Assembly (NCBI GenBank): GCA_049315725.1
Contig: JBMOJP010000004.1
Location: 1-53,367, forward strand
Source of the DNA: Chthoniobacterales bacterium
GTDB taxonomy: Bacteria > Verrucomicrobiota > Verrucomicrobiia > Chthoniobacterales > JACTMZ01
Direction of reading: 5' to 3'
DNA length: 53,367 bases
This document shows, piece after piece, positions 16,398 through 36,595 of this stretch. A program made the translations under genes and the position numbers. The notes under the pieces are model-generated. The model ran no database searches and was not told the origin of the DNA. It was given only the letters and a program-made list of their open reading frames with translations. The first letter of the stretch is position 1; each line of letters opens with the position of its first letter.

Positions 16398-16450
16398 ATG
16401 GACAACATCATGCACATGCACAGGAACCGTGTCAAGGACGATGTTTTTCT

Positions 16451-17544: not shown

Positions 17545-17582
17545 ACTACCACACAGAATTTGGTGTGAAAAGTCATTTTTCG

Positions 17583-18252: not shown

Positions 18253-18318
18253 GTTCAACCAGGGGCGCAGTCAAAGCCTCCGCTACGCTCCGGCTTCGCT
18301 GCACCCTTTATCGTTTAG
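18253..18318 (-). repeat. attC-like site (about 66 bp)
   Basis: The cassette strand reads CCTAAAC-GATAAAGGGTGCAGCGAAGCCGGAGCGTAGCGGAGGCTTTGACTGCGCCCCTG-GTTGAAC, ending in a GTTRRRY-conforming core. It begins immediately after the stop of ORF 18320..18805. Confidence 0.45.
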
Positions 18319-18319
18319 G

Positions 18320-18805: not shown

Positions 18806-18840
18806 AAAGTGGTGTTGGTAGGGGAATGCGACTTATTTTT

Positions 18841-18901
18841 TCCGAACGTATTTTAGAATGATATGTAAACTTATCGGAAAAACATGATATCATGCTAAAC
18901 C
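18841..18901. other. putative attI region / divergent promoter region
   Basis: TCCGAAC (18841..18847; GTTCGGA on the cassette strand) lies 54 bp upstream of the intI start. Direct repeats ATGATAT at 18858..18864 and 18884..18890. Confidence 0.35.
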
Positions 18902-20191: not shown

Positions 20192-20416
20192 GGCGGGACG
20201 AGGAGGGGAATTCTGGAGGGGAGCGAGGGCTTCCAGCCCGCTCTTGCCGGCATCCTGCCGGGAAGATAGCTGGAGGACACTGCCTCAACGGGTGCGCCGG
20301 GCAGGATGCCCAATACCGTTTACTTAAAGAGGTTTTATCCGCAGATTCACGCAGATGAGCGCAGATTAAAAAAGTGCAACAGTCTTTTTGTCAGCTATGT
20401 TCGTCACCACGGTTTC

Positions 20417-21592
20417 ATGCCGACGGATCCCGTCAATTCCCTGCTCTCGCCTGCGATGATCGCGGACCTCTGCCGCCGTGCGGCGGCGCCGGCGCGCCCG
20501 GTGCGGGAGGCGCGGCTGCTGCGCGATGGGGACGAGGCGTTTCCTGCCATGCTTGACCTCATCGGGGCGGCCCGGCATTCGGTTTGCTTCGAGAATTCCA
20601 TTTTCGCCGGGGATGCGACCGGGCGGCGTTTTGCCCGCGCCCTGGGCGACGCGGTGCGGCGCGGGGTGGAGACGCGGGTGCTTTACGATCCGGTGGGGAC
20701 GATGATGGTCAAGGGCGGTTCAGCCGCCAAATGCCTCGCCGCCGAGGGCGTTCCGGCGCGCGCTTTCCGTCCGGTCTCACTGCTCAGCCCCTTAACCTGG
20801 GTGCGGCTGCGTCATCGCGACCACCGCAAGAGTCTGATCGTGGATGGGGACACGGCGGTGGTGGGCGGGCTGTGTATCAGCGACAATTGGGCCCCGCGGG
20901 CCCAGGGCGGGCGGGATTGGCGGGACACAGCGCTGCTCGTTCGCGGTCCGCTGGCCGGCGATGTCGGCACGGCCTTCGAGGCCATGTGGCGGCGGGCCGG
21001 GGAGGTCGAGGTGCCGGTGCCGGCCGCGGCGGACATCATGCCACCCCCGGCACCGTGCGGCCTCGTCGCCGCCGACCAGCCGGGGGCGCACCATGTGGCG
21101 GGGCTCTACATCTGGCTGGCTGCTCACGCGCGGGAGAGTCTGGAAATCACGGACGCCTACCTTGTGACGCCCGAGCCGGTGGTCGCGGCGTTCGAGGCGG
21201 CGGCGCGGCGTGGCGTGTCCGTGCGATTTCTCCTCCCGGGCAGCAACAATCATCCGTTCGCCGCGGCCTCGGCCCGCCGGCGCTACAGCCGCCTGCTCGA
21301 CGCCGGGGCGCGCATCTACGAGTGGCGCGGGATGATGGTCCATGCCAAGACGGCGGTGGCGGATGGCGAGATTGTGCTGGTCGGATCGAGCAATCTGGAC
21401 ACGTTGTCGATGACGCGGAATTACGAGCTCAACCTGATCGTGGCCGACGCGGAGGTCGGCGCGAAGATGCGGGCGATGTTCAGCCACGACCTGCACGGGG
21501 CGCGGGAGATCCGGCCGGAGCAGTGGGCCCAGCGGCCGTTCTGGCAACGGGCCGCGGAGAGCGCGGCGCGCCTTTTCGATGACAACCTATGA
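20417..21592 (+). CDS. phospholipase D-family protein / cardiolipin synthase-like (two HKD motifs)
   Basis: HRKSLIVDG and HAKTAVADG...GSSNLD motifs. Internal Met of ORF 20306..21592. Confidence 0.8.
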   Translation: MPTDPVNSLLSPAMIADLCRRAAAPARPVREARLLRDGDEAFPAMLDLIGAARHSVCFENSIFAGDATGRRFARALGDAVRRGVETRVLYDPVGTMMVKGGSAAKCLAAEGVPARAFRPVSLLSPLTWVRLRHRDHRKSLIVDGDTAVVGGLCISDNWAPRAQGGRDWRDTALLVRGPLAGDVGTAFEAMWRRAGEVEVPVPAAADIMPPPAPCGLVAADQPGAHHVAGLYIWLAAHARESLEITDAYLVTPEPVVAAFEAAARRGVSVRFLLPGSNNHPFAAASARRRYSRLLDAGARIYEWRGMMVHAKTAVADGEIVLVGSSNLDTLSMTRNYELNLIVADAEVGAKMRAMFSHDLHGAREIRPEQWAQRPFWQRAAESAARLFDDNL

Positions 21593-22492
21593 GCCGGTCG
21601 CCCCGCCGATGCGCATGACGTGGAAGATGCCCGTCTCGTCGCGGTAGAATCCGCGAATTTTCGGAATGGCTGCGGGCAGTTTCATGATCGAACTGGCCAG
21701 CCATTGGTCAAAGCGCGCGGAGGCCTCCTCCTGCAACCTTCCATCGGGGGTGAAAATCTCGGTGAACGGCCGGGTCAGCGCCGCGTATTTCTTCGCGTCC
21801 ACCCGGGCTTTCTCCACCCGCCGCGGATCATAGACGGAAACCCACCATCCGCCGTTGGCCCCGGAGCCGGTCGGCGGGGTGATCTCGAAGACGAGGGTTC
21901 CGGCGGATTTCTTGTCCCCGCGGAGGGAGAGGGAGTAGAGGGTGGAGATTTCCTCCCGCGTGTTGAGATGCCCGGCCAGAAACTCGCGGACCATCTGGTG
22001 GTATCTGTCGCTGCGGCCGCGCTTCCCGTAGATGCCGAATTGGATGGCCACGGGATCGTCGGGATTGCCGTAGATATTGAGGATGCCGCGGAGGTTCACG
22101 TTGAAGGACAGATAGGGCACGTTGCGCAGGGCGCCTTCGGTGAAGCTGGCCGAGGGCGCCAACTGGACCCGCCAGACCGCGTCATGGTCGCGAAAATCGT
22201 GCACGATGGCCTGCCAGGACGGGAGCTTGCCCTTGGCCGTGACGGCCGCGACGTAAACCTCATTGTCCGCCTCCTCCTGGATGCGGCTGATGTCCGATTT
22301 GGGGATAACACGTTCGCCTGCGGCGGTCTGCAGGAGCACGGAGTTGGCGTCGTTGCGGAGGATGAGGCCGCGGAGGGTGGTTCCGTCCTTCATCTCGATC
22401 CGGTCTGTCGCCGGGGGCCTCGGTTGCTGCGCGGTCGTCGCCCCCGCGATCGCGAGGAAAAACAGGCCGGCCAGTTGAAGCTTTGCGAACAT
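21587..22492 (-). CDS. secreted hypothetical protein
   Basis: Signal peptide MFAKLQLAGLFFLAIAGATTAQQ. Normal genomic codon bias. No family recognised. Confidence 0.5.
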   Translation of the reverse strand: MFAKLQLAGLFFLAIAGATTAQQPRPPATDRIEMKDGTTLRGLILRNDANSVLLQTAAGERVIPKSDISRIQEEADNEVYVAAVTAKGKLPSWQAIVHDFRDHDAVWRVQLAPSASFTEGALRNVPYLSFNVNLRGILNIYGNPDDPVAIQFGIYGKRGRSDRYHQMVREFLAGHLNTREEISTLYSLSLRGDKKSAGTLVFEITPPTGSGANGGWWVSVYDPRRVEKARVDAKKYAALTRPFTEIFTPDGRLQEEASARFDQWLASSIMKLPAAIPKIRGFYRDETGIFHVMRIGGATGS

Positions 22493-22517
22493 GTCTCCAG
22501 TAAATAGGCTTCGGCGC

Positions 22518-23846
22518 ATGAAGCAAGCCGCTGCTCGGGTCATGGTATTGGCCGCCTTGGGCTTGGGCGGATGCGTCACTCCGCCCCCGCCCTACCATCC
22601 GCCGGCCCAACCCGTGGTGACCAGGCCCTTGCCGAAGGAAAAGTTCTGGTGGGGCACCTCCACGGCCAGCTACCAGAACGAGGACCGGGGTGTTGCGCCG
22701 GGCTCGCCCATGTATTTCCAGACCGACTGGGATGCCTATGGCAAGGAGGGGCTGGCGCCGATCCGCGGCGATGACGCGGTGTTCTCGTGGAGCCGGTTTG
22801 ACCGGGATCTGGCCGCCTTGAAGGAGCTCGGGGTGGACCATTTCCGCTTCGGCGTGGAGTGGGCGCGGATCGAGCCCAAGCCAGGCGTGATCAATGAGGC
22901 GGCCCTCGCGCAATACGTCAGCATGGCCCGGCAACTCCGGGCGGCCGGCATCGAGCCGGTGGTGACGCTCTGGCATTTCACGTTCCCGGATTGGCTCTAC
23001 AACCCGAAAGACAAGGCGCACTCGAATTTCCTGCACCCTGGTGCGCCGGAGGCATGGCACCGGCACGTGGAGCGGGTGGCCAAGGCCATGGCGCCCTACG
23101 TGAGGATTTACGTCCCGCAGAACGAGCCGAACGGAGCTCTCCAGCTCGGGTGGATCGCCGGACACTGGCCGCCGGGGCTGCTGCTTCACCCCTTCGGCTA
23201 CAAACGGGCCATGCGCATCGCGGCCGACATGTTTCGCGACGCCGCGGCCGTGGTCCGTCGGGAGCGGCCGGACGCCGTCATCATGGGCATCTATTCGCTG
23301 CCCGATTGGCGGAAGGCCAAGGGGTTGGTTGACCCGACCCGGTTTGTCTACAATCTGGTGCAGCGGCAGAATTTCGACCACCTTGACATGGTGGCCGACA
23401 CGATGGACATCGTCGGGGTCAACTACTACTACGCGCAGGACGCCAGCCTGCTGCGCTTTCTCAGCCGGGGCCATGGCGAGATGTCGTCCAACTACACCCA
23501 GCTCGGCTGGGAGATCGTGCCGGAGGGACTTTTCAACGTCCTGACCACGGTAAGTAAGCGCTACGGCAAACCGATCGTGCTGACCGAAAACGGCCTGGGC
23601 ACGCAGAGCGAGCGCAAGCGCATCCGCTATCTGCGCGAGCACATCGCGCAGATGCGCCGGGCCATGGCCGCCGGGGTGGACGTGCGCGGCTACTTCCCCT
23701 GGACGCTGGTGGACAACTACGAATGGAAAGAGGGATGGCACGGTCAGTTCGGCCTCTTCTCCTACGATCCGAAAACGAAAAACCGCGTCCTCCAGCCGAC
23801 CGGACGCTGGTTCTCCGCCTTCATCAAGTCGCACCAGGATCCTTGA
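22518..23846 (+). CDS. glycoside hydrolase family 1 beta-glucosidase, probable lipoprotein
   Basis: Lipobox LGLGGC. FWWGTSTASYQNE, acid/base NEP (VPQNEPNG) and nucleophile LTENG motifs. Confidence 0.8.
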   Translation: MKQAAARVMVLAALGLGGCVTPPPPYHPPAQPVVTRPLPKEKFWWGTSTASYQNEDRGVAPGSPMYFQTDWDAYGKEGLAPIRGDDAVFSWSRFDRDLAALKELGVDHFRFGVEWARIEPKPGVINEAALAQYVSMARQLRAAGIEPVVTLWHFTFPDWLYNPKDKAHSNFLHPGAPEAWHRHVERVAKAMAPYVRIYVPQNEPNGALQLGWIAGHWPPGLLLHPFGYKRAMRIAADMFRDAAAVVRRERPDAVIMGIYSLPDWRKAKGLVDPTRFVYNLVQRQNFDHLDMVADTMDIVGVNYYYAQDASLLRFLSRGHGEMSSNYTQLGWEIVPEGLFNVLTTVSKRYGKPIVLTENGLGTQSERKRIRYLREHIAQMRRAMAAGVDVRGYFPWTLVDNYEWKEGWHGQFGLFSYDPKTKNRVLQPTGRWFSAFIKSHQDP

Positions 23847-23938: not shown

Positions 23939-26900
23939 ATGCACGAGGAATCTATCGCGATCATTGGAATGGGGTGCCGTTTTCCCGGTGCGCTGAACAA
24001 CGTCGAAGACTTTTGGAAGTTCCTTCTCGAGGGGCGCGACGCCGTGGTGGAGATTCCGCCGGATCGCTGGAATATCGGGCGCTTCTACGATCCCGAGCCG
24101 GGGCTTCCGGGCAAATCAATGGCCAAGCACGGTGGGTTCATCGAGGGCATTGATCTTTTTGACCCGCAATTTTTCGGTATTTCCCCGCGCGAGGCTCCCT
24201 ACATCGATCCGCAGCAACGGCTGCTGCTCGAGACCGCGTGGGAGGCCATCGAGGACGCGGGGTTGGTCCTCGACCATGAGCACGGCACCGACATCGGCGT
24301 CTTCGCCGGCATCTCCCACACCGACTATCAGGGCATTCAGGGCGGGGCGACCGATCGCTGCGGCATCAGTCCTCATTCGGCCACCGGCCACGCCCACAGC
24401 ATCGCGGCCAACCGCATTTCCTACTGCCTCAACCTGACCGGGCCGAGTATCGCGATGGACACCGCATGTTCCTCGGCTCTCACCGCCGTGCACGTGGCCT
24501 GCGAGCACCTGCGCAAGGGGCGCTGCGCCACCGCCCTGGCCGGCGGGGTGACGGTCATGATCACGCCGGACGGCTTCATTGGTTTTTCCCAGGCCTCGAT
24601 GTTGTCGCCGGACGGACGGTGCCGTGCCTTCGATGCCTCGGCCAACGGTTTTGTCCGCGGCGAGGGTGCGGGCATGGTTCTGCTCAAGCCGCTGTCCCGG
24701 GCGCTGGCGGATGGTGATCGTGTTTATGCGGTGATCCGTGGCACGTCCGTCAATCAGGACGGCCACACCAACGGGATCATGCTGCCGGGGGAGGAAGCCC
24801 AGACCCGCCTGGTGCGCGAGGCCTGTGCCGACGCCGGCATCGATCCGGCGGATGTCGGCTACGTCGAAGCCCACGGCACCGGCACCGCGGTGGGCGATCC
24901 CATTGAGGCGCACGCGCTGAGCCACGCGCTCTGCGACGGCCGCCCGGCCGAACGACCGCTGGTCATCGGTTCCGTCAAGAGCAACCTCGGCCACCTCGAA
25001 ACCGCGGCCGGCGTGGCCGGTATCATCAAGGCGGCCCTCATCGTCAGCCGCGGCCAGATTCCACCGAGCATCCATTTCGAGACACCAAGCCCGCACATTG
25101 ATTTTGAGGCCTGCCGGCTGCGGGTGCCGACGCGGGTCGAGGCTTTCCCCGAGGTGGCCAGCGGAGCTCGGGTTGTCGGGGTCAATTCCTTCGGTTTCGG
25201 CGGGGCCAATGCCCACGTGATTCTGTCCGCCCCGCCGGCGTCTACGGTGGCGAAGACACCGGTGGTGGATGCGGAGCGCACCTGGCCCTTTGTGCTCTCC
25301 GCCCGCTCGGAGGAATCGCTCAAGGCCTCCGCGGCAAACCTCGCGGCCTGGCTGGAGGAGAAGGCCGGGTCCAACGGCACCGGCCGGTTCCTGCCCGACC
25401 TCGTTTACACTCTCGGGGCCCGCCGGAATCATCATCCTTACCGCCTGACCGCGGCGTCCGCCTCGGCCCGGGGCTTGGCCGAGAGCCTGGCCATGTTCGC
25501 GGGCGCGGGGGCCTGTCCGGGCCTGAACACATCTTTCGCTCCGCATCCGGAGCATTCTCCGCGCGTCGGATTTGTCATGAGCGGGCAGGGACCGCAGTGG
25601 TGGGGGATGGGGCGCGAGCTGATGCGGACCGAACCGGTCTTTCGTCAGGCCATGGAGCGCTGCGCCGCCGCCATGGCGCCTTACGCGCGCTTTAATTTAC
25701 TCGAAGAATTGGGCCGCGATGAGGCGACCACGCGGGTGGCCGAAACCGAAGTCGGGCAGCCGGCCATCTTTGCCATGCAGATCGCGCTGTCTGCTTTGTG
25801 GAAAGCGTGGGGCGTCACTCCCTCGGCCATCACCGGGCACAGCGTCGGCGAGGTGGCGGCGGCTTGTGTGGCGGGAATTCTAACCCTCGAAGAAGCGGCG
25901 CGCATCATTGTTATCCGCGCCCAGGCCATGTCCGGCTGCGCCCGTCACACCGGGGCGATGCTGGCAGTGGGGTTGGACGAGGAGGGGGCGCGGGCCTTGA
26001 TCGAACGCCACGACCCGGCGGCCAGCATTGCGGCGTTCAACGGACCGACTTCGCTCACCATCGCCGGGCTCAAGCCCTCGCTGGAAAAAATGGCGGCCGA
26101 GTTGGAGTCGCGCCAGATTTTCAACCGCTTCGTGCGCGTGCAGCATCCGTTCCATCACGCCATGATGCAGCCGGCCGCCGACGAGCTGACGGCGGCGCTG
26201 GCTGGTCTGGAACCGCAGGCTGGAGACGTGCCGTTCTTCAGCACGGTGACCGGCGCGCTCTGCCCCGGGGCGGATTGCACCGCGGCCTACTGGGGCAGCG
26301 GCATCCGGCAGCCGGTGCGTTTCGTTTCCGCCGTCAACGCCATGGCCGCGCACGGCGTGGATGTCTGGCTGGAGATCAGCGCGCATCCGGCCCTCGCCAT
26401 TTCGTTGCAGGAATGCCTCGGGTCGGTGGGAATCAAGGCTCCGGTCGTTTCCTCCACGCGCCGCGAGCGGGAACAGGAGGCGGCCATGGACGCGGTGCTC
26501 GACCTGCATCGGTTGGGCGTAGCCGTGGATTTTACCTCCCTGACCCCTTCGCGTCATCAACTCAGGCTGCCGACCTACCCTTGGAACAAGGCCCGCTGGT
26601 GGCACGAGTCCAACGAGATGCGCCACAGCCGCCTGAGCGCCGGGGGCAAGGGAATCCTTGATTTTCGTCTGGCCCGGTCCGTGCCCACCTGGGTGGCCCG
26701 CCTCGACGCCCGGCATCTGGCCTACCTGCGCGACCACTGTGTGGACAACCATGTCGTTTTCCCCGCGGCGGCCTTCATCGAAATGGCGCTTGAGGCGGGT
26801 CTCGAGATTTTCGAGAAGCGTCCGTTCGCCATTGAGGACTTTGAGATTCGCAAGCCGCTCATCCTGCCGGAATCAACCAGTCATCTTCTGCTCGAACTGA

Positions 26901-29900
26901 CCTGGGAGGCGACCGAGCGCACTTTCACGATCAAGAGTCTGCTCGAGCCCTCCTCGAGCTGGTCGGTCCACGTGGTCGGCTCGATGCGGGGCGAGCGCGT
27001 GGAAACGACGTTCGAGACCACACGCTGGCTGCCGCCCGAGGGTCGGCTCGATCCGATGGATCTCGAGGAGCATTACCAGCACAAGCGCGACCGCGGGCTG
27101 AATTACGGTCCGGAGTTCCGCGTGGCCCACGAAATTTTCGCCCGGGCCGGTGAGGCGTCGGGCCTGGTCGCCCTCTCGGCCGACGCCGCGCGCCGCGCCG
27201 CGGAGTATGCGGTCCATCCCGTGATCCTCGATGGCGCGCTGCACGTCTTCTCCGCCGGGGCCCGCACGGTGGAGGCACGGGGCCAGAAGTTGAAGCTCCC
27301 CGTGCGGTTCGGTCGCATCGTTTTCCTCCGGTCCCCCGGAGCCCGCAGCCGGGTGCAATCGGCCGTCACCCATTGCAACGAGGAGCTGACCGAGGGGCGC
27401 ATCGGATTGTATGACGAGCAGGGCGAGCCCTGCCTGCTCGTGGATGGTTTTCGGGCCGTCGCCCTTGGCTCCTTGCGCCGGGCGGGATCTTCAACGGGCG
27501 AGGGGAGGGATTTGGTTTATCATGCGGCGTGGGAGCGGCAGCCGGCCCCAGGGCCTCGTCCGGACCTCGAGCCGCTGCCGCTGGAGGATTTGCGCGCCGC
27601 GGCGGCCCGGGCGCTCGGTCAGGTGCTCGATCTTCGTGGCCGTGAACGCTTGGAAAATGTCATGCGCGAGGAAGATGACGTGGCCGCCGCCCAGATCGCC
27701 GCCGGCCTGCGCCGCATGGGCGTCGGAGCAGTCGGAGGCGCAGTCTTTTCGCCAGCATCGCTCGGGGTGCCCCCAGCCATGCAGCCCATTTTTCGGCGTC
27801 TCATGTCTGGCCTGACGGAGCATGAACTTTTGCGGGCCGAGGGTGACGGATGGCGCGTCACGCCCGCTTTCGCCGGTGCGGCCGAGGGCGCTTCCACAAT
27901 CCTGCAGGATTTTATCCGTCATTATCCCGGGCATCTTTGCGAGGTCATGCTCTGTGCCGCGACCGGCGCGGAATTCGAAGCGATCATCCGCGGGGAGAAA
28001 GACGCCATTCAGGTGCTCTTCAGCGGCATGGGGTCGGATCATTTGGAGCAATTTTACGGTGACGGCCTTTATGCCTCGCACTGGGTGACGGCTATCGGCA
28101 CGGCGGTGCGCCAAGCCGCCTCCGCGCGGCCCGAGGGCCGCGGATTGCGCATCCTTGAGGTCGGCGCGGGCACCGGTGGCCTGGCGGCCCAGCTCCTGCC
28201 ACTGCTTGAGCGCGGCGTCCATCAATACGTTTTCACCGATGTTTCCAGCGGCTTCTTCCCTCCCGCCCAGCAGAAACTCGCGGCTTATCCCGAGGTGGAA
28301 TACCGCGCTTACGATCTGGGCCGGAACCCGGAGGATCAGGGGCTGGTCGAGGGAAGTTTCGACTTCATTGTCGGCACGAACGTCGTGCATGCCGTGGCCG
28401 ATGTGCGGGCCTGTCTCACCAACCTGCATCGGCTCCTCGCCCCCGGCGGAACGCTCATGTTTATGGACGTGGCCACCCCGCGGTTGTGGACCGACTCGAT
28501 TTTCGGGCTGACCAGCGGTTGGTGGAGCCTGACCGACCGCGACCTGCGGCCCGAGCACCCGCTGCTGCCGCGGGCCAAGTGGGAGGAAATCCTGCAGAAG
28601 TGCGGGTTTGCGCAGACGCTCAGTCTCCCCGGGCTCTCTCGTCCGGGCGGCGGCGAGGGGCAGATCGGTCTGCTCGCCCGCAAAGCATGGTCCGAGGCGG
28701 CCGCCATCCTCGAAGAATCGGCTGCGCTGGAAGAGACCTCCTGGGTGATTTTTGCCGACCGTCGTGGCCTCGGTGATGCCCTGGCCAACGAAGTGCGGCG
28801 GCGGGGGGCGCGCTGCCGTGTGGTGCGCGCCGGGGCAGAGGACGCTGTGCCGGACGGGGATGTGCGCGTGATCAATCCGCGCCGGGCGGAGAGTTGGATG
28901 CATTTGGCCGGCGAATGGTCGGCGGACGCGCCGCCGCAGAGGTTTGTGCATTTGTGGGCGATGGATGAGGCGGAGCCGGATGCCTCATCCGATGGCCTCA
29001 TCGGAACCGATGCCCTGCTTCATCTCGCGCATGCTTTGGATGTTTTTGCCCCCACGGGGAAATTTCGTTTTGATCTTGTGACTTCCGGGGCTCAACCGGC
29101 GGGGCGTGATCCGGTGGGGGTTGAGGTTGGCGCCGGAGCAACCATCGGTCTTTTCCGGGTCTTCCTGACGGAGCATCCCGGCGCGACCTGCCGCGGGATT
29201 GATCTGCCGGCGGGGGTCTCGGCCGCGGATTGGCGGTTGCTCTGGGACGAGTTGCAGCGCACGGACCCCGAGCGTGAAGTCGCCGTGCGCGGCGAGGCGC
29301 GTTACGTCCAGCGCATGACCCGCGGTTTGCCTGTCGAGGATCGCCCGTTGGATGCATCCATCCCGCTGCGTCTCGAGTCGCGGGAGCGTGGGAGCATCGA
29401 CAGCCTCAAGTTCACGCCGTTTGTGCTGCCCGTCTGCGGGCCCGGAGAGGTGCTCATCAAGGTCCAGGCGGCCGCGTTGAATTTCCGCGACGTGCTCAAG
29501 GCGCTCGGGCTTTATCCCGCCGAGACGGCCGACGCGCGGATGTATGGCGACGAGGTTGCCGGGGAAGTTCTCGCCGTCGGTCCTGGCGTCGATCATGTCA
29601 AGGTGGGCGACCATGTTTTCGGTCTCGCGGTCTTCGGGTTGGCCACGCACACGCTGGCCCGCGCGGCCGATGTGATCCCGGTCCCGGCCGGCATGACTTC
29701 GGAGGAAGCGGCCACGGTGCCGGTGGTTTTCATGACCGCCTGGCACGCACTCGCCAGCGTGGCCCGCCTGCGGGCGGGCGAAAAAGTCCTCGTCCATTCG
29801 GGCGCCGGCGGCGTCGGCATGGCGGCGATTCAGATCGCGCAGCATCTTGGCGCCGAGGTCATCGCCTCGGCCGGAAGTCCCGGTAAGCGCGCCCTTCTCG

Positions 29901-31621
29901 AGACCCTGGGGGTCGAGCATGTCATCGACTCACGGCGCGGCGACTTTGCCGAGCGGGTCCTCGAGTTGACCGGTGGTCGCGGGGTCGACGCGGTGGTCAA
30001 CGCGCTGGCCGGTGAGGCCATTCCCATGGGGCTTTCGTGCCTGGCCGAGTTCGGACGTTTCATCGAGATCGGCAAGCGCGACATCTACCAGAATTCCAAA
30101 CTGCCGCTCTGGCACCTCCGCCGCAACGCGTCCTTCCATGTGGTCGCGATGGACGCTGTTTTCGCCGGTGATGCGGAATTGACCCGCGGGCTCCTCGCCG
30201 AGGTGGCCGGCCTGATGGCTCGGGGCGCGCTCCAACCCCTGCCTTACCGGTCCTTCCCGGCTTGCCGGGCGGATGCGGCTTTCCGTCTGATGGCGGCCGG
30301 CAAGCACACCGGGAAAGTCCTGCTCGCTTTCACCGACGCTTTCATGGTGGCAACCGGGACGGTGCCGCGACCATCTTTCAACGTTGATCCTGCCGCAACC
30401 TACCTCATCACCGGCGGCTTCGGCGGATTTGGCAAAGTCTTGGCCCGCTGGCTGTCCGACCGTGGGGCGCGGCACCTTGTCCTGGCCGGGCGGCAGGGCG
30501 AGGCCACGCCTGGTGCGGCGGAATTTATCGCCGAACTGCAGACCGCCGGCGCGGAAACTTTGAGTCTTCGGGCCGATGCCGGATCATCGGTCGACTTGGA
30601 GAAACTCTTTGCTGCCATCCGCGCTTGTGGTCGTCCGCTCAAGGGCGTGTTCCACCTCGCCATGGTCATCGACGATGCGTCGCTGGCCGACCTGACTCCC
30701 GCGAGAATGTCCGCGGTCATGCGCCCCAAGGCCCTCGGTGCGTGGTTGCTGCATGAGCACACGCGCGGCATGAACCTCGACGCCTTCGTCCTGTTTTCCT
30801 CCGCCTCGAGTATTTTCGGCAATCCCGGCCAGGGAAACTATGCCGCCGCCAATGCCTTCCTCGACAGCCTGGCCCATCATCGGCAGGCCCTCGGCTTGCC
30901 CGCCCTCGCCGTCAACTGGGGTGTCCTCGGCGGCGATGGTTATGTGGCCCGCAACGAAAAGGTCGCCGAGTATTTGGCGCGTCAGGGCACCCTTGCGCTC
31001 GAACCGAAGGAGGTCGTGTCCCTGCTCGAATCCTTCCTCGACGCCCGGGTGGCTCAAGTGGCGGCTTTGCGGGTCGATTGGGGCAAATGGCGGCAGGCCT
31101 TTCGCAGCCTGCAGGACAGCCCGTTTCACGAGCGCGTGTTTGCCTCCGCTGTCGAGACCGAGGAGACCTCAAGCAAGGCGGGTGACTGGCGCGGGCGCAT
31201 CGACGCGGCGCCCCCGGAGGAGCGCGAGTCGGTCATCGTCCGCGCCCTGCAGGAAGTCGTCGGCTCGGTGCTCCGGGTCAAGCCCGAGTCCCTGCGACCG
31301 GACCAACCCTTGACCGACCTCGGCCTCGACTCGCTCATGGGCGTGGAAATCGAAAATCTCATCGAGGGTTCCATCGGTGTGACCCTGCCCCCCACCAGTC
31401 TGATGCGGGCGCGGACCATCGGGCAGATTGCCACCCTCATCCACGGGCACCTTGGCGGCGAGCAGCGGCCCGGTACGTCTCCGGCCCAGGCGGCCGCCGG
31501 GGCCGAGGAGGAGGTTTCGTTGGCCGAACTTGATCTGGAGGCCCTGGGCGTGGACGACCTTGATGAATTGGGCCCTCCCAGCAGCGCGTCGAGGATCAAC
31601 ATCCCCGCGGGCGCCTCCTGA
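23939..31621 (+). CDS. fully reducing single-module type I polyketide synthase, KS-AT-DH-cMT-ER-KR-ACP, no thioesterase
   Basis: The domains, from a hand count, are as follows. KS is aa 4-430 (nt 23948..25228; DTACSS Cys177, EAHGTGT, GHLE). AT is aa 543-840 (nt 25565..26458; GHSVGE Ser634, HPFH). DH is aa 905-1180 (nt 26651..27478; HCVDNHVVFP, ILDGALH). The methyltransferase is aa 1320-1580 (nt 27896..28678; ILEVGAGTGG). ER is aa 1815-2130 (nt 29381..30328; HSGAGGVG). KR is aa 2153-2335 (nt 30395..30943; ITGGFGGFG, GQGNYAAAN). ACP is aa 2425-2505 (nt 31211..31453; LGLDSL Ser2465). There is an acidic C-terminal tail. Confidence 0.9.
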   Translation: MHEESIAIIGMGCRFPGALNNVEDFWKFLLEGRDAVVEIPPDRWNIGRFYDPEPGLPGKSMAKHGGFIEGIDLFDPQFFGISPREAPYIDPQQRLLLETAWEAIEDAGLVLDHEHGTDIGVFAGISHTDYQGIQGGATDRCGISPHSATGHAHSIAANRISYCLNLTGPSIAMDTACSSALTAVHVACEHLRKGRCATALAGGVTVMITPDGFIGFSQASMLSPDGRCRAFDASANGFVRGEGAGMVLLKPLSRALADGDRVYAVIRGTSVNQDGHTNGIMLPGEEAQTRLVREACADAGIDPADVGYVEAHGTGTAVGDPIEAHALSHALCDGRPAERPLVIGSVKSNLGHLETAAGVAGIIKAALIVSRGQIPPSIHFETPSPHIDFEACRLRVPTRVEAFPEVASGARVVGVNSFGFGGANAHVILSAPPASTVAKTPVVDAERTWPFVLSARSEESLKASAANLAAWLEEKAGSNGTGRFLPDLVYTLGARRNHHPYRLTAASASARGLAESLAMFAGAGACPGLNTSFAPHPEHSPRVGFVMSGQGPQWWGMGRELMRTEPVFRQAMERCAAAMAPYARFNLLEELGRDEATTRVAETEVGQPAIFAMQIALSALWKAWGVTPSAITGHSVGEVAAACVAGILTLEEAARIIVIRAQAMSGCARHTGAMLAVGLDEEGARALIERHDPAASIAAFNGPTSLTIAGLKPSLEKMAAELESRQIFNRFVRVQHPFHHAMMQPAADELTAALAGLEPQAGDVPFFSTVTGALCPGADCTAAYWGSGIRQPVRFVSAVNAMAAHGVDVWLEISAHPALAISLQECLGSVGIKAPVVSSTRREREQEAAMDAVLDLHRLGVAVDFTSLTPSRHQLRLPTYPWNKARWWHESNEMRHSRLSAGGKGILDFRLARSVPTWVARLDARHLAYLRDHCVDNHVVFPAAAFIEMALEAGLEIFEKRPFAIEDFEIRKPLILPESTSHLLLELTWEATERTFTIKSLLEPSSSWSVHVVGSMRGERVETTFETTRWLPPEGRLDPMDLEEHYQHKRDRGLNYGPEFRVAHEIFARAGEASGLVALSADAARRAAEYAVHPVILDGALHVFSAGARTVEARGQKLKLPVRFGRIVFLRSPGARSRVQSAVTHCNEELTEGRIGLYDEQGEPCLLVDGFRAVALGSLRRAGSSTGEGRDLVYHAAWERQPAPGPRPDLEPLPLEDLRAAAARALGQVLDLRGRERLENVMREEDDVAAAQIAAGLRRMGVGAVGGAVFSPASLGVPPAMQPIFRRLMSGLTEHELLRAEGDGWRVTPAFAGAAEGASTILQDFIRHYPGHLCEVMLCAATGAEFEAIIRGEKDAIQVLFSGMGSDHLEQFYGDGLYASHWVTAIGTAVRQAASARPEGRGLRILEVGAGTGGLAAQLLPLLERGVHQYVFTDVSSGFFPPAQQKLAAYPEVEYRAYDLGRNPEDQGLVEGSFDFIVGTNVVHAVADVRACLTNLHRLLAPGGTLMFMDVATPRLWTDSIFGLTSGWWSLTDRDLRPEHPLLPRAKWEEILQKCGFAQTLSLPGLSRPGGGEGQIGLLARKAWSEAAAILEESAALEETSWVIFADRRGLGDALANEVRRRGARCRVVRAGAEDAVPDGDVRVINPRRAESWMHLAGEWSADAPPQRFVHLWAMDEAEPDASSDGLIGTDALLHLAHALDVFAPTGKFRFDLVTSGAQPAGRDPVGVEVGAGATIGLFRVFLTEHPGATCRGIDLPAGVSAADWRLLWDELQRTDPEREVAVRGEARYVQRMTRGLPVEDRPLDASIPLRLESRERGSIDSLKFTPFVLPVCGPGEVLIKVQAAALNFRDVLKALGLYPAETADARMYGDEVAGEVLAVGPGVDHVKVGDHVFGLAVFGLATHTLARAADVIPVPAGMTSEEAATVPVVFMTAWHALASVARLRAGEKVLVHSGAGGVGMAAIQIAQHLGAEVIASAGSPGKRALLETLGVEHVIDSRRGDFAERVLELTGGRGVDAVVNALAGEAIPMGLSCLAEFGRFIEIGKRDIYQNSKLPLWHLRRNASFHVVAMDAVFAGDAELTRGLLAEVAGLMARGALQPLPYRSFPACRADAAFRLMAAGKHTGKVLLAFTDAFMVATGTVPRPSFNVDPAATYLITGGFGGFGKVLARWLSDRGARHLVLAGRQGEATPGAAEFIAELQTAGAETLSLRADAGSSVDLEKLFAAIRACGRPLKGVFHLAMVIDDASLADLTPARMSAVMRPKALGAWLLHEHTRGMNLDAFVLFSSASSIFGNPGQGNYAAANAFLDSLAHHRQALGLPALAVNWGVLGGDGYVARNEKVAEYLARQGTLALEPKEVVSLLESFLDARVAQVAALRVDWGKWRQAFRSLQDSPFHERVFASAVETEETSSKAGDWRGRIDAAPPEERESVIVRALQEVVGSVLRVKPESLRPDQPLTDLGLDSLMGVEIENLIEGSIGVTLPPTSLMRARTIGQIATLIHGHLGGEQRPGTSPAQAAAGAEEEVSLAELDLEALGVDDLDELGPPSSASRINIPAGAS

Positions 31622-31631
31622 TTTGGCCCGG

Positions 31632-32993
31632 ATGGAAACCGATGTCCGCACACGATTGCAGGAGATGGTGGCAAGCGGTCAGGTGCGCCTGCAGCCGCTG
31701 ACCTTTCCCCAGCGCGAATTGTGGGAAACTTCCTTCGTTCCCCCGACCGACCCTTCCCATACGATAGGCTCGTTCCTCGACATCCGCGGGCCCTTGTCAT
31801 TTGCCATGTGCCGCGACGCCCTCCGCCTCGTCATCGAGCGGCAGGAGGTCATGCGCACGTCATTCTTGCCGGGCAAGGATCGGCCGGTGCAAATGATCCG
31901 GGCCCACGCGGAACCCGTCCTGACCTATCGCGAACTCGCTTCCGGCGAAGCGGACGACGCGAACATTCTTGAGGTTTTGCACGAGAGCTTTCGTCGTCCC
32001 TTCGATCTGGTGCGCGGACCACTTTACCGCCTGGAAATGCTGCGACGTGGGCCGGACCATCACGCTCTGGGCCTGGGCATCCACCATGCCATTGCCGACG
32101 GGTGGACGGTGACCAGCTTTGTGGAGGATTTTTGCACCGCGTGCGTCATTGTCTGGCGCAAGGCGGGCAAGGACATGTCGCGACTGCGTGGTATCCGGGA
32201 TTCCCTGCCCCCGCTCGCCCTGACGTATTCAGCCTGGGGCGCGGCCGAGCGTGTGCGCTGGCAACCAGCTCGACTCGAACCGCACGCGGCCTATTGGCAG
32301 GACCGTTTGTCCGGCACGAAGCTGCTCTTTGACGCTCCCGCGGAGACAGCCCTCGCGCCCATGGAAAAATGGACGACCTCGCTGCCCGCCGAGCTGGCCG
32401 AGCCTCTGCGCGCCCTGGCCAAGCGGTCGGAGACGACGCTTTTCAGCGTGCTCGCCACGGCTTTCCGTCTGGCCCTCTTCCGCTGGAAAGGTGCGGATGA
32501 CGTGGTGTTGGGCACACCCGTGGCCGGCCGGGCCAAGGCGGCCAGCAAAGAGGTCATGGGCTATTTTTCCGGCATCGTTCCGCTGCGGGCCCGGCTTGAT
32601 CCGGCGCTTTCGTTCGAGCAGATGCTGGAGGAGGTTCACCGGCAGGCGGTGGATGATTTCGCCCACGCCATGCCATTCGTCGAATTGGCGGCCGCCGTCG
32701 AGCGCGGGGCGCCACGCCGACGGCACGCGATTTTCGACGTGCGGTTCGCCGTGCAGAATCATCCGTGGCCCAGCATTAAGATCCCCGGCATTTCGACCAA
32801 GCTCCGCACGCTGACGAGTGGCACCTCGCGCTTTGACATCGCCTGCGAGCTAACGGAGGATGGCCGCATGTTGGAGTTGATTTGGCTCCACCGGCCGACG
32901 GTCATGACCGCGTTGGAAGTTCGCGATTTGGACCGGATTTTCCGAGAGGTCTTGGTCGAAGCCGGAACGCGACCAGCTCCGACCACGAACTGA
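31632..32993 (+). CDS. stand-alone condensation-domain acyltransferase (NRPS C / PapA-like)
   Basis: LGIHHAIADGWT (HHxxxDG) motif. 453 aa. Starts 10 nt after the PKS stop. Confidence 0.8.
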   Translation: METDVRTRLQEMVASGQVRLQPLTFPQRELWETSFVPPTDPSHTIGSFLDIRGPLSFAMCRDALRLVIERQEVMRTSFLPGKDRPVQMIRAHAEPVLTYRELASGEADDANILEVLHESFRRPFDLVRGPLYRLEMLRRGPDHHALGLGIHHAIADGWTVTSFVEDFCTACVIVWRKAGKDMSRLRGIRDSLPPLALTYSAWGAAERVRWQPARLEPHAAYWQDRLSGTKLLFDAPAETALAPMEKWTTSLPAELAEPLRALAKRSETTLFSVLATAFRLALFRWKGADDVVLGTPVAGRAKAASKEVMGYFSGIVPLRARLDPALSFEQMLEEVHRQAVDDFAHAMPFVELAAAVERGAPRRRHAIFDVRFAVQNHPWPSIKIPGISTKLRTLTSGTSRFDIACELTEDGRMLELIWLHRPTVMTALEVRDLDRIFREVLVEAGTRPAPTTN

Positions 32994-33961
32994 TGAACGA
33001 AACCACTTTGACCGTGAAACCTGAGGCCCCTGCGGGCTTCGAGCCTTGGGCGCACCACGCAGCTTTCTCACTCGTGGCCGGGTTGTTCTACACCACGATG
33101 GGCGTGATGGCGCTGTGCCTTTATCAAGGGTGGATCTGGCCTTTGATTCCGCTGGTCCTGCTCTCGAGTCACCTCATGCACGCCATGCTCATCGCCTTCC
33201 ATGAGGCCGCCCATGGCAACCTCCGCAAGAGCAAGCTCTTGAATGAAATTGACGGAATTGTTGTCGGCATGATCAGCGTGACGCCATTCATGCTCTACCG
33301 GGCGTTGCATCAGAAACACCACGTGAACCTTGCGACTGAGAAGGACGTGGAGCTCTGGCCCTTCGTTGACCCGCAGGAGCCTCTTTGGTGGCGGCGCGTG
33401 GCGGCCTTCCTCGAATTGAACTTCGGTTTCTTTTACACGCCCTACCTTTTCTGGCGCGTCTTTCTCCAGCGTCCTTCGCCGGTGACCAACCGCGCTGTGC
33501 GACGCCGCATCTGGGTGGAGACGGCGGGAATGATTCTCTTCTGGGGCACCGTGCTGGGGCTCGTGGCCTACTTTCAAGTGTGGACTTGGTTTCTCGTCCT
33601 CTACTTCATCCCGGCCTTCATCGCGGGCAATCTACAAAGCTGGCGCAAATACATCGAGCATGTCGGCTTGAGCGGCAACACCGGCCGGAGCGCGACCCGC
33701 AGCATCGTCGGTGACACCTTGCCCGGCCGCATCGTCTCCATTTCCCTCCTGCACCAGCCGTTGCATGGCGTGCATCACATCAAGAGTTCCCTGCCGCACG
33801 AACAGTTGTCCGATCATGTGGACTGGCTCATGCCCGAGGATGACGGCGACACCGTGCCATTCCCAACCTATCGCGCGGCCTTTGCCGATCTGCTCAAATG
33901 CCTGGCCGACCCGCGGGTCGGCGGACAATGGGCGACCGCGTCGGCGCCCCGCGCCACCTGA
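32993..33961 (+). CDS. membrane fatty-acid desaturase/hydroxylase-family di-iron enzyme
   Basis: Three His boxes (HEAAHG, HQKHH, HGVHH) and 4 TM segments. The start overlaps the upstream stop (TGATG). Confidence 0.8.
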   Translation: MNETTLTVKPEAPAGFEPWAHHAAFSLVAGLFYTTMGVMALCLYQGWIWPLIPLVLLSSHLMHAMLIAFHEAAHGNLRKSKLLNEIDGIVVGMISVTPFMLYRALHQKHHVNLATEKDVELWPFVDPQEPLWWRRVAAFLELNFGFFYTPYLFWRVFLQRPSPVTNRAVRRRIWVETAGMILFWGTVLGLVAYFQVWTWFLVLYFIPAFIAGNLQSWRKYIEHVGLSGNTGRSATRSIVGDTLPGRIVSISLLHQPLHGVHHIKSSLPHEQLSDHVDWLMPEDDGDTVPFPTYRAAFADLLKCLADPRVGGQWATASAPRAT

Positions 33962-33963
33962 TC

Positions 33964-34674
33964 ATGTCGGACCACGCCGTGGCCGCAGATGACCGCACGC
34001 TTTTCGAGGCCGTCGGGCTGGCCAAGGAATACGACGACGGTCGCGTGCCCGCTCTGCGCGGGGTCAATTTTCGCATCAAGCGGGGTGAGTTCGTTTCGAT
34101 TGTCGGCCCCAGCGGCTGCGGCAAGACCACGCTGCTCAACATGCTCGGCCTGCTCGACACCCCGACCGGGGGTGAGTTGTGTTACGGCGGCACGGCGCTT
34201 TCGAGGGTCGCCGATCCCGCCACCTACCGCGCCCGCGAAGTCGGCTTCATCTTCCAGTCGTTCCACCTCCTGCCGACCTTCACCGTGGAGGAGAACGTGC
34301 AGATCCCCATGTTCGGCCTGCCGTGGAAACGCACCGAGCGCCAAGCCCGCGCGGTGGAGTTGCTGACCGCCGTCGGTCTGTCCCATCGCCTCGGTCATCT
34401 GCCGGTCAAACTCTCCGGCGGGGAGCGGCAGCGCGCCGCCATTGCCCGCAGTCTGGCCAATCGCCCGTCCATTCTTCTCGCGGACGAGCCCACGGGGAAT
34501 CTTGATAGCAAGAATGCGGGCCTCATCATGGAACTTCTCAAACGTCTTCAACAAGAGCACGAGGCCACGCTTGTCCTCGTGACCCACGACCCCGAGGTGG
34601 CCAGCCACGCCTCGCGCCTCATTCGCATGAAAGACGGCCAAATCCTGTCCGACGCCGCAGCCGTCAACGCATGA
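33964..34674 (+). CDS. ABC transporter ATP-binding protein, LolD/MacB type
   Basis: Walker [10 protein letters not shown], signature LSGGERQR, Walker [13 protein letters not shown]-loop VTHD. Confidence 0.85.
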
Positions 34675-35786
34675 CATTTCTCGAGGTCATCTTTCGCGGT
34701 CTCTGGCGGCGTCCGGTGCGGACCGGACTCACCGGCCTCGGCATCGCCATCGGCATCGCGGCTTTCGTTGCGCTCGTGGGGATGTCCGCCGGCTACGAGA
34801 AAGGTGTCACGCGGCAACTCGACGTGATCGGCATCGACGTGGTCGTGAGCAACATGCAGGGCGGGATCATGCCCAAGGCCTTCGAGGAATCGGTGCGCGA
34901 GGGCGTAGCGGCGCTGCCCGGGGTGGCCGAGGCCAATGCCACGCTCATGCAGATGTTGAGCGTGGAGGACGCGCCCATGATGGTCGTTTACGGCCGCCAA
35001 TGGGATTCGTTCACCTGGGACAGCTTGAAAGTTCTGGAGGGACGGCTGCCCCGCGACGCCAACGAACCCGCCGTGGTGCTGGGTCAGCTGGCTGCCGAGA
35101 TGCTGGGCAAAAAGCCCGGCGACAAAATCCAGATCGAAACCGGCGAGTTTGAAGTCGTCGGCATCGTGGATGGACAGTCCGTGGTGGAAAATGGCGCCAT
35201 CAACATGGCTCTCCCGCGTTTTCAGGAGGTCAGCGGCTACCAGAACCGGGTCAATTTCATCAATGTCCGCGTGCCGCCGGGCGCCGACGAGGCGCAAATC
35301 GCCGATCTCTGCCGCCGGATCGAGCAGGCCTTTCCCGGATTGCGCGCCGTCAAGGCTGGAGACGTGGTCGGGACCAGCCAGGGATTCCAAATGGCCCAGG
35401 CCATGAGTTGGAGCACTTCGCTGCTCGCCCTCATCGTCGGGGTTCTTGGCGTGATGAACACCATGCTGATGAGTGTCTTCGAGCGGAAACACGAGATCGG
35501 TGTCCTCCTGGCCCTCGGCTGGAAGCGCTCGCGTATCATGGTCCTCATCCTCTGCGAGTCCGCCGCCCTAGGCCTGCTGGGCGGGGTCATCGGGGTGGCC
35601 CTCGGGGCCCTCACGCTGGCTGCCCTGGAGCTCACGCCGATGGTGCGAGGATTTCTTGAGCCCGACCTCGGATGGCCTCTCGCCTTCCGCGCCATCCTCA
35701 TCGCTCTGGCTGTCGGTGTGGTCAGCGGCTTCTACCCCGCGTGGCGCAGTTCCCGCCTTTCCCCCAGCATCGCGCTTCAAGGTTGA
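34671..35786 (+). CDS. ABC transporter permease, FtsX/MacB-like (4 TM plus periplasmic domain)
   Basis: N-terminal TM, a periplasmic domain of about 220 aa, and three C-terminal TMs. ATGA overlap with the ATPase gene. Confidence 0.8.
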   Translation: MTFLEVIFRGLWRRPVRTGLTGLGIAIGIAAFVALVGMSAGYEKGVTRQLDVIGIDVVVSNMQGGIMPKAFEESVREGVAALPGVAEANATLMQMLSVEDAPMMVVYGRQWDSFTWDSLKVLEGRLPRDANEPAVVLGQLAAEMLGKKPGDKIQIETGEFEVVGIVDGQSVVENGAINMALPRFQEVSGYQNRVNFINVRVPPGADEAQIADLCRRIEQAFPGLRAVKAGDVVGTSQGFQMAQAMSWSTSLLALIVGVLGVMNTMLMSVFERKHEIGVLLALGWKRSRIMVLILCESAALGLLGGVIGVALGALTLAALELTPMVRGFLEPDLGWPLAFRAILIALAVGVVSGFYPAWRSSRLSPSIALQG

Positions 35787-35827
35787 CCGTCGTGCGTTCG
35801 CGCTTTTCAGTGGCGGCAGATCCCCTC

Positions 35828-36595
35828 ATGAGAAGATTTTCCTCCCTCCGCACCTTCCTTTTTCTCCTCCTGCTTTCCCTGCCGGCGTCAGCCGAGGAAA
35901 TCTCGATGTTCGCCACGGAGCTGGCGGGTCAACTGGCTGCCGCCGTGCAGGACGGCAGCTCGGTCGCGCGGGTGAAGTTCAAGGTCGAGCCCGCCGGCGG
36001 CGCGGCTCCCACCGTGCTCCAACTCCAAATCAAGGCCCGCCGCACGGCTGACCAGTCCGAGGTCGCTTATGAGGTGCTCTGGCCGACCGAGCGCAAGGGC
36101 GAGCGCCTCGTCCTGCGCCAGCGCGGCAACGGCCCCGTCGAGGCCGCGACCTTCGTTCCCCCCGAAAAACGCCAGCGCCTGACCGCCGCACAATTGCTCG
36201 AACCCATCCTCGGCAGCGACCTCGCGGCGCACGATGCGGTGGAGAACTTTTTCCGCTGGAAACAGCAAGCGCTGGGCGGACGCGAGAAAATCGGCAACGC
36301 CGACTGCGTCCTCGTCGAGTCCCGGCCCGGCGCAGGAGACAGCAGCCCCTACGGCAAAGTCGTCAGTTGGATCGACCCCCGCAAAATGATCCCCCTGCGT
36401 ATCGAGAAGTTCGACAAATCCGGGAAGTTGGTGCGGCGGATCGAGACAACCCAGACCGCCAAGGACGACCGCGGCCGCAACGTGCCCGCCGCCATGACCG
36501 TGACCCGCGCCGCCGGCGGCAGCGTAACCGAGATCGACGGCTCGAACCTCCGCCACGACGTAACCGTAGGCGACGCGGATTTCGCCGGGCTCTAG
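35828..36595 (+). CDS. secreted LolA-like / outer-membrane lipoprotein-sorting family protein
   Basis: Signal peptide (LFLLLLSLPASA). The size and beta-rich sequence resemble LolA_like proteins commonly found next to MacB-type ABC pairs. Internal Met of ORF 35672..36595. Confidence 0.55.
   Translation: MRRFSSLRTFLFLLLLSLPASAEEISMFATELAGQLAAAVQDGSSVARVKFKVEPAGGAAPTVLQLQIKARRTADQSEVAYEVLWPTERKGERLVLRQRGNGPVEAATFVPPEKRQRLTAAQLLEPILGSDLAAHDAVENFFRWKQQALGGREKIGNADCVLVESRPGAGDSSPYGKVVSWIDPRKMIPLRIEKFDKSGKLVRRIETTQTAKDDRGRNVPAAMTVTRAAGGSVTEIDGSNLRHDVTVGDADFAGL

Follow-up and report, generated by a model that had tools for sequence, protein, structure and literature searches.

Among described systems, the mycobacterial Mas/PapA5/DrrABC-MmpL7/LppX pathway of phthiocerol dimycocerosate, and likewise Pks2/PapA1-2 of sulfolipid-1, offer the closest functional parallel to the six-gene operon analyzed here. 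In the mycobacterial logic, a fully reducing single-module polyketide synthase (PKS) is followed by a separate condensation-fold enzyme and then by transporters and a LolA-fold carrier, and the same succession of functions recurs in a Chthoniobacterales bacterium of the phylum Verrucomicrobiota. We examined a 53,367-nucleotide (nt) stretch of its DNA (assembly GCA_049315725.1, contig JBMOJP010000004.1, positions 1 to 53,367 of the forward strand; hereafter the window), in which six intact co-directional open reading frames (ORFs) occupy positions 23939-36595 of the plus strand: a type I PKS, a stand-alone condensation (C) enzyme, a membrane oxygenase, an ATP-binding cassette (ABC) ATPase and permease, and a secreted LolA-like protein. 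An earlier note, made from the letters and their translations, had described these six genes and their tiny gaps and overlaps, which the sequence and translations bear out (Table 1). The operon most likely makes and exports an uncharacterized polyketide-derived lipid.

Table 1. The six genes of the operon and the parts of its polyketide synthase, in window coordinates.
Feature	Position	Strand	Description	Junction to next gene, or motifs
PKS	23939..31621	+	type I polyketide synthase, 2560 aa	10-nt gap
C enzyme	31632..32993	+	stand-alone NRPS-type condensation enzyme, 453 aa	TGATG overlap
Oxygenase	32993..33961	+	integral-membrane di-iron, FA_desaturase superfamily, 322 aa	2-nt gap
ATPase	33964..34674	+	ABC, LolD/MacB-like, 236 aa	ATGA overlap
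Permease	34671..35786	+	type VII ABC permease, 371 aa	41-nt gap
LolA-like	35828..36595	+	secreted LolA-superfamily protein, 255 aa	
KS	23948..25081	+	PKS aa 4-381	Cys177; His pair EAHGTGT / KSNLGHL
AT	25571..26521	+	PKS aa 545-861	Ser635 in GHSVGE (633-638); malonyl-like HPFH
DH	26681..27472	+	PKS aa 915-1178	HxxxNxxxxP and DxxxH
cMT core	28124..28612	+	PKS aa 1396-1558	SAM motif I LEVGAGTGG; catalytic His in NVVHAV
ER	29369..30328	+	PKS aa 1811-2130	NADPH motif HSGAGGVG
KR	30395..30928	+	PKS aa 2153-2330	TGGFGGFG; IDD (B-type-like); catalytic YAAAN
ACP	31244..31441	+	PKS aa 2436-2501	Ser2465 in LGLDSLM
Acidic C-terminal tail	31454..31618	+	55 residues	conserved E-[IV]-D-[LF]-D-x-[LI]-x-D-x-D-L-D-like motif
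(aa, amino acids; NRPS, nonribosomal peptide synthetase; SAM, S-adenosylmethionine.)

The operon departs from its mycobacterial counterpart in several respects. Its acyltransferase (AT) domain appears to be of the malonyl type and its PKS carries an embedded C-methyltransferase (cMT) domain, whereas Mas has none; its C enzyme resembles the LCL-type domains of NRPSs rather than PapA, its transporter is a MacB/FtsX type VII ABC system rather than DrrABC/MmpL, and its host is a diderm. The PKS was accordingly rejected as an orthologue of Mas or Pks2 on the strength of its HPFH/GHSVGE motifs, its cMT domain and its NCBIfam scores, in which the Pks2 family is among the top matches but, as NF041183, reaches only 1226 bits against an equivalog cut-off of 2400. 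The fungal highly reducing (HR) PKSs and PKS-NRPS hybrids of the LovB, Fum1 and psoA type show the identical domain string KS-AT-DH-cMT-ER-KR-ACP with a C domain next, and in the searchable literature this string is used for fungi in all of the papers listed (25 of 34). Unlike these systems, the gene described here is bacterial, its cMT is closest to that of cyanobacterial CurJ, and its C domain is a separate protein nearer to bacterial LCL domains (1e-53) than to psoA (7e-33) or LovB (5e-14).

Further parallels concern export. In the heterocyst glycolipid/DevBCA system, a PKS-made envelope lipid is paired with an FtsX-family ABC exporter, and the operon ATPase matches the DevA family (2.1e-54); unlike that system, the operon has neither a DevB-type membrane-fusion protein (MFP) nor a glycosyltransferase, and its DevA score (184 bits) lies below the cut-off of 296. 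Flexirubin and aryl-polyene loci use type II-like PKS machinery and transporters of the resistance-nodulation-division (RND)/MMPL type. There too, a polyketide-type outer-membrane lipid is encoded with LolA-superfamily proteins, the flexirubin locus containing LolA/LolB paralogues (PMC11885536); the operon differs in having a type I PKS, a C enzyme, a type VII ABC transporter and a LolA-like protein of the PF17131/DUF1329/LolA3 branch. For Borrelia BBJ26-28, a trio of ATPase, MacB-like permease and LolA-like protein, export of a non-polar ligand has been proposed computationally (PMC13078400). Like this trio and like LolCDE-LolA, the operon combines an ATPase, a four-transmembrane permease with a large periplasmic domain and a LolA-fold carrier, with no MFP. 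It is distinguished from LolCDE-LolA by its single permease gene, its sub-cut-off scores and its presumed cargo, a lipid rather than a lipoprotein.

Evidence for a functional unit comes from its conservation. A scan with one genome per species identified 318 stretches that encode a relative of the C enzyme, from which 80 loci were kept. All 80 are verrucomicrobial, including metagenome-assembled genomes (MAGs) labeled Prosthecobacter debontii, Luteolibacter, Chthoniobacter, Akkermansiaceae and Terrimicrobiaceae, and the closest locus, with 80% identity, is that of another Chthoniobacterales MAG. The C enzyme has hundreds of relatives, the named sources of which are Chthoniobacterales, Verrucomicrobiales or unclassified Verrucomicrobiota, and none of which bears a functional name. 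Synteny was counted only at loci with enough flanking sequence, the 10-kb flanks ending inside or just before the PKS. The PKS lies immediately 5' of the C gene in 50 of 52 loci; of 61 loci, 57 have the oxygenase downstream of it, 54 the ATPase, 52 the permease and 48 the LolA-like gene, and in 45 all four stand in the window order. Recurrence of one gene order in dozens of species puts the arrangement far beyond chance. The six genes therefore form a real functional unit, as the earlier note had supposed, with an order conserved across Verrucomicrobiota orders. That note had also named, as grounds for doubting such a unit, conservation of the downstream genes independently of the PKS; this independence is confined to a few PKS-less loci, where the C gene is still attached. 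At these loci (L029 and L051, probably also L023 and, in part, L026; of Terrimicrobiaceae type plus some from Chthoniobacterales), unrelated housekeeping genes precede a C gene that is mostly accompanied by oxygenase, ATPase and permease.

Beyond the six genes, several neighbors absent from the window recur elsewhere: an AsnB-like amidotransferase, an unknown protein of ~370 aa, a PGAP1-like lipase, a chalcone-isomerase-like protein and a 1300-aa patatin-like phospholipase. Most of these accessory genes are lipid-handling, and we count the patatin-like, PGAP1-like and chalcone-isomerase-like neighbors in favor of a lipid product. In some Verrucomicrobiales-type loci (L040, 15123-21357; L042, 11914-18208; L047, 13057-19974), the co-directional cluster extends further, adding the ~370-aa unknown protein, either the patatin-like phospholipase or a 290-aa unknown protein, and the PGAP1-like lipase; L042 additionally holds a second ATPase-permease-LolA-like trio within the same cluster. 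The AsnB-like glutamine amidotransferase (Asn_synthase 5.7e-75) stands immediately 5' of the PKS, mostly on the opposite strand and ~8 kb upstream of the C gene, in about 15 loci (including L036, L037, L039, L047 and L053), which hints that the product carries a carboxylate that is amidated in some lineages. Separately, two contigs of one MAG (JBBSDS01, LS1_sbin.21; L064 and L067) each bear a copy of the cluster, which could represent paralogous clusters or a mixed bin.

In the explanation that we favor, the operon is a vertically conserved verrucomicrobial unit in which a reduced polyketide acyl chain is built, attached to a small nucleophile, oxidized and moved out of the inner membrane; taken as a whole, we regard this account as about evenly balanced between right and wrong. 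The PKS, acting iteratively or extending a fatty-acyl primer, would produce a saturated chain, possibly alpha-methylated by the cMT domain. The C enzyme would then dock on the acidic PKS tail and release the chain as an amide, or less likely as an ester, onto an acceptor that the operon does not encode, candidates including amino acids, polyamines and lipid head groups. In the membrane, the oxygenase would hydroxylate or desaturate the lipid; the ABC pair would extract it from the inner membrane and pass it to the LolA-like carrier, which would take it to the outer membrane. The product, its acceptor and its final location are what we infer; the enzymes themselves provide the evidence discussed below.

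The PKS comprises a single fully reducing module with the KS domain at its very start (Pfam E-values: KS 3.6e-97, AT 8e-66, PS-DH 1.3e-22, Methyltransf_12 1.1e-17, ADH_zinc_N 4.9e-24, KR 1.6e-62, PP-binding 2.4e-13); among its Pfam domains there is no loading domain and no thioesterase (TE) or reductase (R) release domain. In an alignment of 49 distinct orthologues, the catalytic motifs are invariant or nearly so in every domain: KS (Cys and two His), AT (Ser), DH (His and Asp), methyltransferase (MT; SAM motif I and His), ER (glycine motif), KR (glycine motif and Tyr) and ACP (Ser). The architecture and intact motifs that had been read from the letters are thus upheld, together with the numbering of Cys177 and ACP Ser2465, while the AT serine is residue 635 and not 634. 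Across orders, domain identity averages 60-76% (KS 75%, AT 68%, MT 68%, KR 67%), and since the MT domain is conserved on a par with AT and KR, the cMT is argued to be under selection.

By its sequence, the MT region is a genuine PKS C-methyltransferase domain. Its best matches in the PDB are the CurJ C-MT (5thy, 1.1e-57) and PksCT (5mpt, 5.6e-40), with which LEVGAGTGG and NVVHAV align. Within aa 1503-1513 (28445-28477; GGTLMFMDVAT), an Asp (residue 1510) replaces the catalytic-pair Glu of CurJ, PksCT and 7dmb, and both this Asp and the His (residue 1484) are invariant in 49 of 49 orthologues. The HAFH/YASH rule separates malonyl- from methylmalonyl-type ATs; in alignment, HPFH stands opposite the YASH, and GHSVGE opposite the GHSQGE, of the methylmalonyl-specific DEBS ATs. 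By this rule the AT reads as malonyl-like, which would leave the cMT as the source of any methyl branch, in agreement with what the earlier note had proposed from the HPFH motif. Past the ACP, the acidic tails are only 29% identical overall, yet they have in common the acidic motif E-[IV]-D-[LF]-D...D-L-D, with a net charge of -7 to -21 in 24 of the 25 orthologue tails listed and of -4 in the remaining one (L020, an incomplete sequence).

How often this module acts per chain is the point at which the most durable alternative arises, namely that the PKS is non-iterative and extends a fatty acyl primer from primary metabolism by just one C2 unit, fully reduced and possibly alpha-methylated, yielding a 2-methyl acyl chain of ordinary length instead of a long one with several branches. 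The locus has one module and neither a loading domain nor an acyl-activating enzyme, the KS-AT region is equally close to modular DEBS (2hg4, 608.6 bits) and to Mas (5bp1, 609.1 bits), and the lineages that keep the C and downstream genes with no adjacent PKS suggest that ordinary acyl donors can serve. However, the characterized stand-alone, fully reducing single-module synthases (Mas, Pks2, fungal HR-PKSs and animal fatty acid synthase) are iterative, and the best PDB match of the whole protein is the mycocerosic acid synthase of Mycobacterium tuberculosis (1031 bits over two stretches), LovB and psoA being strong matches as well. We therefore consider a single round of extension unlikely, though it deserves serious attention.

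Of the genes that would act on the chain after its release, the oxygenase matches PF00487 (FA_desaturase, 6.1e-29) with the histidine boxes HEAAH, HQKHH and HGVHH; in 14 orthologues, HEAxH, HQxHH, HGxHH and further His residues are invariant, and two hydrophobic blocks are predicted, all in keeping with its original description as a three-His-box membrane desaturase or hydroxylase. Its NCBIfam matches at E<=1e-5 are hydroxylases only, GntB (3.4e-9; 36 bits, cut-off 380) and CrtR (3.4e-7; 30 bits, cut-off 475), suggesting that hydroxylation is at least as likely as desaturation. A sequence-profile search detected no solved relative; the AlphaFold2 (AF2) model is poor (pLDDT 65.5) and its Foldseek matches are weak, the sole relevant one being to AlkB at a TM-score of ~0.48.

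The transport genes belong to Lol-like families and lie outside the canonical Lol system. The ATPase (ABC_tran 9.5e-34) has the usual ABC motifs and falls below every family cut-off, with LolD TIGR02211 as its best NCBIfam match (230 bits against 307.75) and additional resemblance to MacB and DarD-type exporters. The permease (Pfam MacB_PCD 3.8e-22, FtsX 8e-19) has a predicted MacB/LolC-like topology of one transmembrane segment, a MacB-like periplasmic domain and three further segments, and scores 62 bits against the LolCE TIGR02212 cut-off of 362; with a single permease gene, a homodimer is implied. Canonical LolCDE/LolA membership was rejected on these LolD and LolCE scores; the LolD/MacB and FtsX-type transporter named in the earlier note stands as a family assignment and falls short of LolCDE itself. 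A tripartite exporter of the MacAB-TolC/DevBCA type was also rejected, as no HlyD-family MFP is present among the six genes or in the window flanks.

The last gene product, previously called a secreted LolA-like protein, retains that description. It matches LolA_like PF17131 (4.8e-21) and, by eye, has a Sec-type signal ending in ASA and lacks a lipobox Cys. Its confident AF2 model (pLDDT 90.2) finds 4z48 (DUF1329), 3bk5 and Porphyromonas gingivalis LolA3 (9tp6) in Foldseek with TM-scores of 0.77-0.83, as opposed to 0.4-0.5 for canonical LolA, which would place it nearest the LolA3/DUF1329/PF17131 branch. LolA3 has a hydrophobic groove, and its function is not established (PMC13103446). The match of the model to LolA-superfamily structures with hydrophobic grooves supports a role as lipid carrier.

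One locus separates biosynthesis from this particular export route. In an Akkermansiaceae MAG (L052, 11361-15853), the PKS-C pair is followed by an HlyD-family MFP, seen in this locus only, and an AcrB-family RND pump, which replace the oxygenase, ABC, FtsX and LolA-like genes. An exporter swapped beside the same PKS-C pair indicates that the transport genes serve the PKS product. Alternatively, the product could be no envelope lipid but a secreted specialized metabolite, for instance a lipoamino-acid surfactant, a signal or an antibiotic; the ABC pair would in that case serve for efflux or self-protection, and the LolA-like protein would be auxiliary. MacB-family transporters export small molecules and peptides, and the resemblance of the ATPase to MacB and DarD-type exporters, the classical MFP and RND pair of L052 and the dispensability of the LolA-like gene in some lineages all fit this alternative. 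Against it, an MFP beside the ABC pair is absent in the window and in most loci, the LolA-like gene is kept in the large majority, and the very high conservation of the PKS across orders, as seen in its KS domain, together with the recurrent lipid-handling neighbors, fits a structural lipid better. Secretion of a specialized metabolite hence seems improbable to us.

The linkage between chain and acceptor depends on the C enzyme, which is a full-length match to PF00668 (5.5e-51, 174 bits, model positions 5-403 of 456), its only Pfam match at E<=0.01. Its motif reads HHAIADGW, in which H151, H152, D156 and G157 are invariant in 12 diverse orthologues, and no transmembrane segment is predicted. 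Other motifs of the C enzyme are F[PS]QRE[LI]WE and D[VT]RFAxQNH. In single-sequence and profile searches of the PDB, the top matches are the LCL-type NRPS C domains 5u89, Txo2, TycC and Txo1 (1e-51 to 1e-53), followed more weakly by the fungal hybrid psoA, the CDA starter C domain (1.7e-16) and the LovB C domain. PapA5 gave no match at E<=1e-3 with the single sequence and does not appear in the best 60 of 73 profile matches, and VibH is not among the PDB matches listed. An exhaustive profile search was dominated by giant multi-C NRPSs and shows only an ordinary C-domain relative. By these matches, the protein is an ordinary NRPS-type, LCL-like condensation domain. Membership of the PapA-type acyltransferases was rejected on the LCL-first ranking and the lack of PapA5 among the matches listed, and the analogy holds only at the level of function.

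How such an enzyme would work here is suggested by its surroundings. Neither the operon nor the recurrent neighbors across the 80 loci include an adenylation (A) or peptidyl carrier protein (PCP) domain, and TE and R domains are missing from the operon (by Pfam) and from the same neighbors. Ahead of its C1 motif, the C enzyme has a conserved N-terminal helix of ~20 aa that could form a docking pair with the acidic PKS tail, and the C enzyme may itself off-load the PKS chain.

Release need not be onto nitrogen, and in a further alternative the C enzyme acylates a hydroxyl group on a sugar, on glycerol or on a second lipid, giving an ester by the chemistry of PapA5 or PapA3. Condensation-fold enzymes such as PapA5 and Fum14 do form esters, the operon contains no amine-supplying gene, and some lineages have lipases and a patatin-like protein encoded beside the cluster. 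We nevertheless find ester formation distinctly unlikely, as the C enzyme groups by sequence with amide-forming LCL domains and PapA5 is not among its listed PDB matches. Finally, that the ATPase-permease-LolA-like trio is a housekeeping lipoprotein-sorting system merely adjoining the PKS, as the LolD match of the ATPase and the LolA superfamily of the last gene might suggest, is very improbable, since all scores lie under the Lol equivalog cut-offs (the permease far below), the trio is linked to PKS-C across orders and, unlike an essential single-copy system, it is absent or replaced in some genomes and duplicated in L042.

Returning to the favored account of an amide-linked lipid delivered to the outer membrane, several observations weigh against it. 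One concerns acylation: LCL-type C domains normally use a carrier-bound aminoacyl acceptor, and the acceptor-carrier partner of such a domain is absent from the locus. The PKS-less loci (L029, L023) indicate that the donor may sometimes be an ordinary acyl-ACP, and cMT activity would not be assured given the Asp in place of the C-MT Glu. Export raises further difficulties. No type VII ABC transporter is known to flip its substrate, which leaves the account with no evident route to the periplasmic leaflet for a lipid made in the cytoplasm. Of 61 loci, 13 have no LolA-like gene (L020, L021 and L025 among them), and some have no transport set at all. The RND/MFP swap of L052 would fit release from the cell no less than delivery to the outer membrane; that the lipid could be exported to the medium instead is a weak point of the account.

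A bolder version of the same account, which we put forward only tentatively and hold as less probable than its contrary, is that many Verrucomicrobiota possess a novel class of outer-membrane lipid, made by a fungal-HR-PKS-like synthase, released as an amide by a free-standing C enzyme and delivered by its own Lol-like pathway. The arrangement would be equivalent to the mycobacterial Mas/PapA5/LppX system but have evolved independently in diderms.

The genomic setting of the operon is chromosomal core with no obvious island. Its G+C content of 0.63-0.67 matches the remainder of the window, and the flanking genes are housekeeping genes (FabF-like, YchF, ArgC, ArgJ, ArgB, Der and GltB/D). On the 3' side, a ~150-nt gap separates the LolA-like gene from a convergent minus-strand gene starting at ~37303, and therefore the unit ends after the LolA-like gene. 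A terminator scan yielded 20 sites against 16.9 in shuffled sequence, i.e. no excess, and promoter and terminator scans gave nothing usable at the operon borders; no tRNA genes were found in the window.

On the 5' side, a plus-strand GH1 glycosidase gene (22491-23846) ends 92 nt before the PKS start. Together with a minus-strand gene (21587-22579), it precedes the PKS in no loci but those of the closest relatives (L003, L004, L007 and L011), and both were excluded as members of the unit because their linkage to the PKS is confined to these. The GH1 protein is divergent (208 bits against a BGL cut-off of 478) with intact NEP and TENG motifs and has a lipoprotein-type signal (LGGC). The minus-strand gene, conserved beside GH1 among the closest relatives, specifies a secreted protein of 330 aa that matches nothing in Pfam. 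A plus-strand ORF at 21620-22507, considered as an upstream extension of the operon, was dismissed as a shadow frame, the minus frame 21587-22579 being much better conserved (79% versus 57% identity to L003). Further upstream, 2.3 kb 5' of the PKS, lies a phospholipase D (PLD)-type, cardiolipin-synthase-like gene (20306-21592, plus strand; TIGR04265 220 bits, below the cut-off of 290).

Other features of the window include possible mobile-element remnants at 17161-20065, with no tRNA gene nearby. These consist of a retropepsin-like ORF (17161-17544, minus strand), an ORF with only the phage-integrase N-terminal SAM-like domain (PF13495) and no catalytic domain (18902-19714), and a small GIY-YIG-like ORF (19823-20065). 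Moreover, a low-GC stretch (0.50 versus about 0.65) contains a pair of small minus-strand ORFs (15877-16469), by eye a candidate YoeB-type toxin (15877-16137) overlapping a YefM/Phd-type antitoxin (16134-16469).

The cluster family is real, widely conserved and apparently uncharacterized; a search of open-access and bioRxiv text found no description of the six-gene set, which is not proof of its uncharacterized status. Its order and sequence are conserved across several orders, and relatives of the C enzyme turned up in 318 stretches in the genome scan, making a sporadic secondary-metabolite cluster unlikely. Verrucomicrobiota are abundant in soil, freshwater and animal-associated habitats, and little is known of their envelope chemistry. 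To assembly-line enzymology, a PKS off-loaded by a stand-alone LCL-type C domain would be of interest. Furthermore, if the product is an envelope lipid, the operon would be one of the rare bacterial cases of a fungal-type, cMT-containing, fully reducing PKS, and the product would be a natural cargo for the LolA_like/LolA3 branch and for trios of ATPase, MacB-like permease and LolA-like protein, so far of predicted function. For the phylum itself, such a product would be a new lipid biomarker and a new membrane component.

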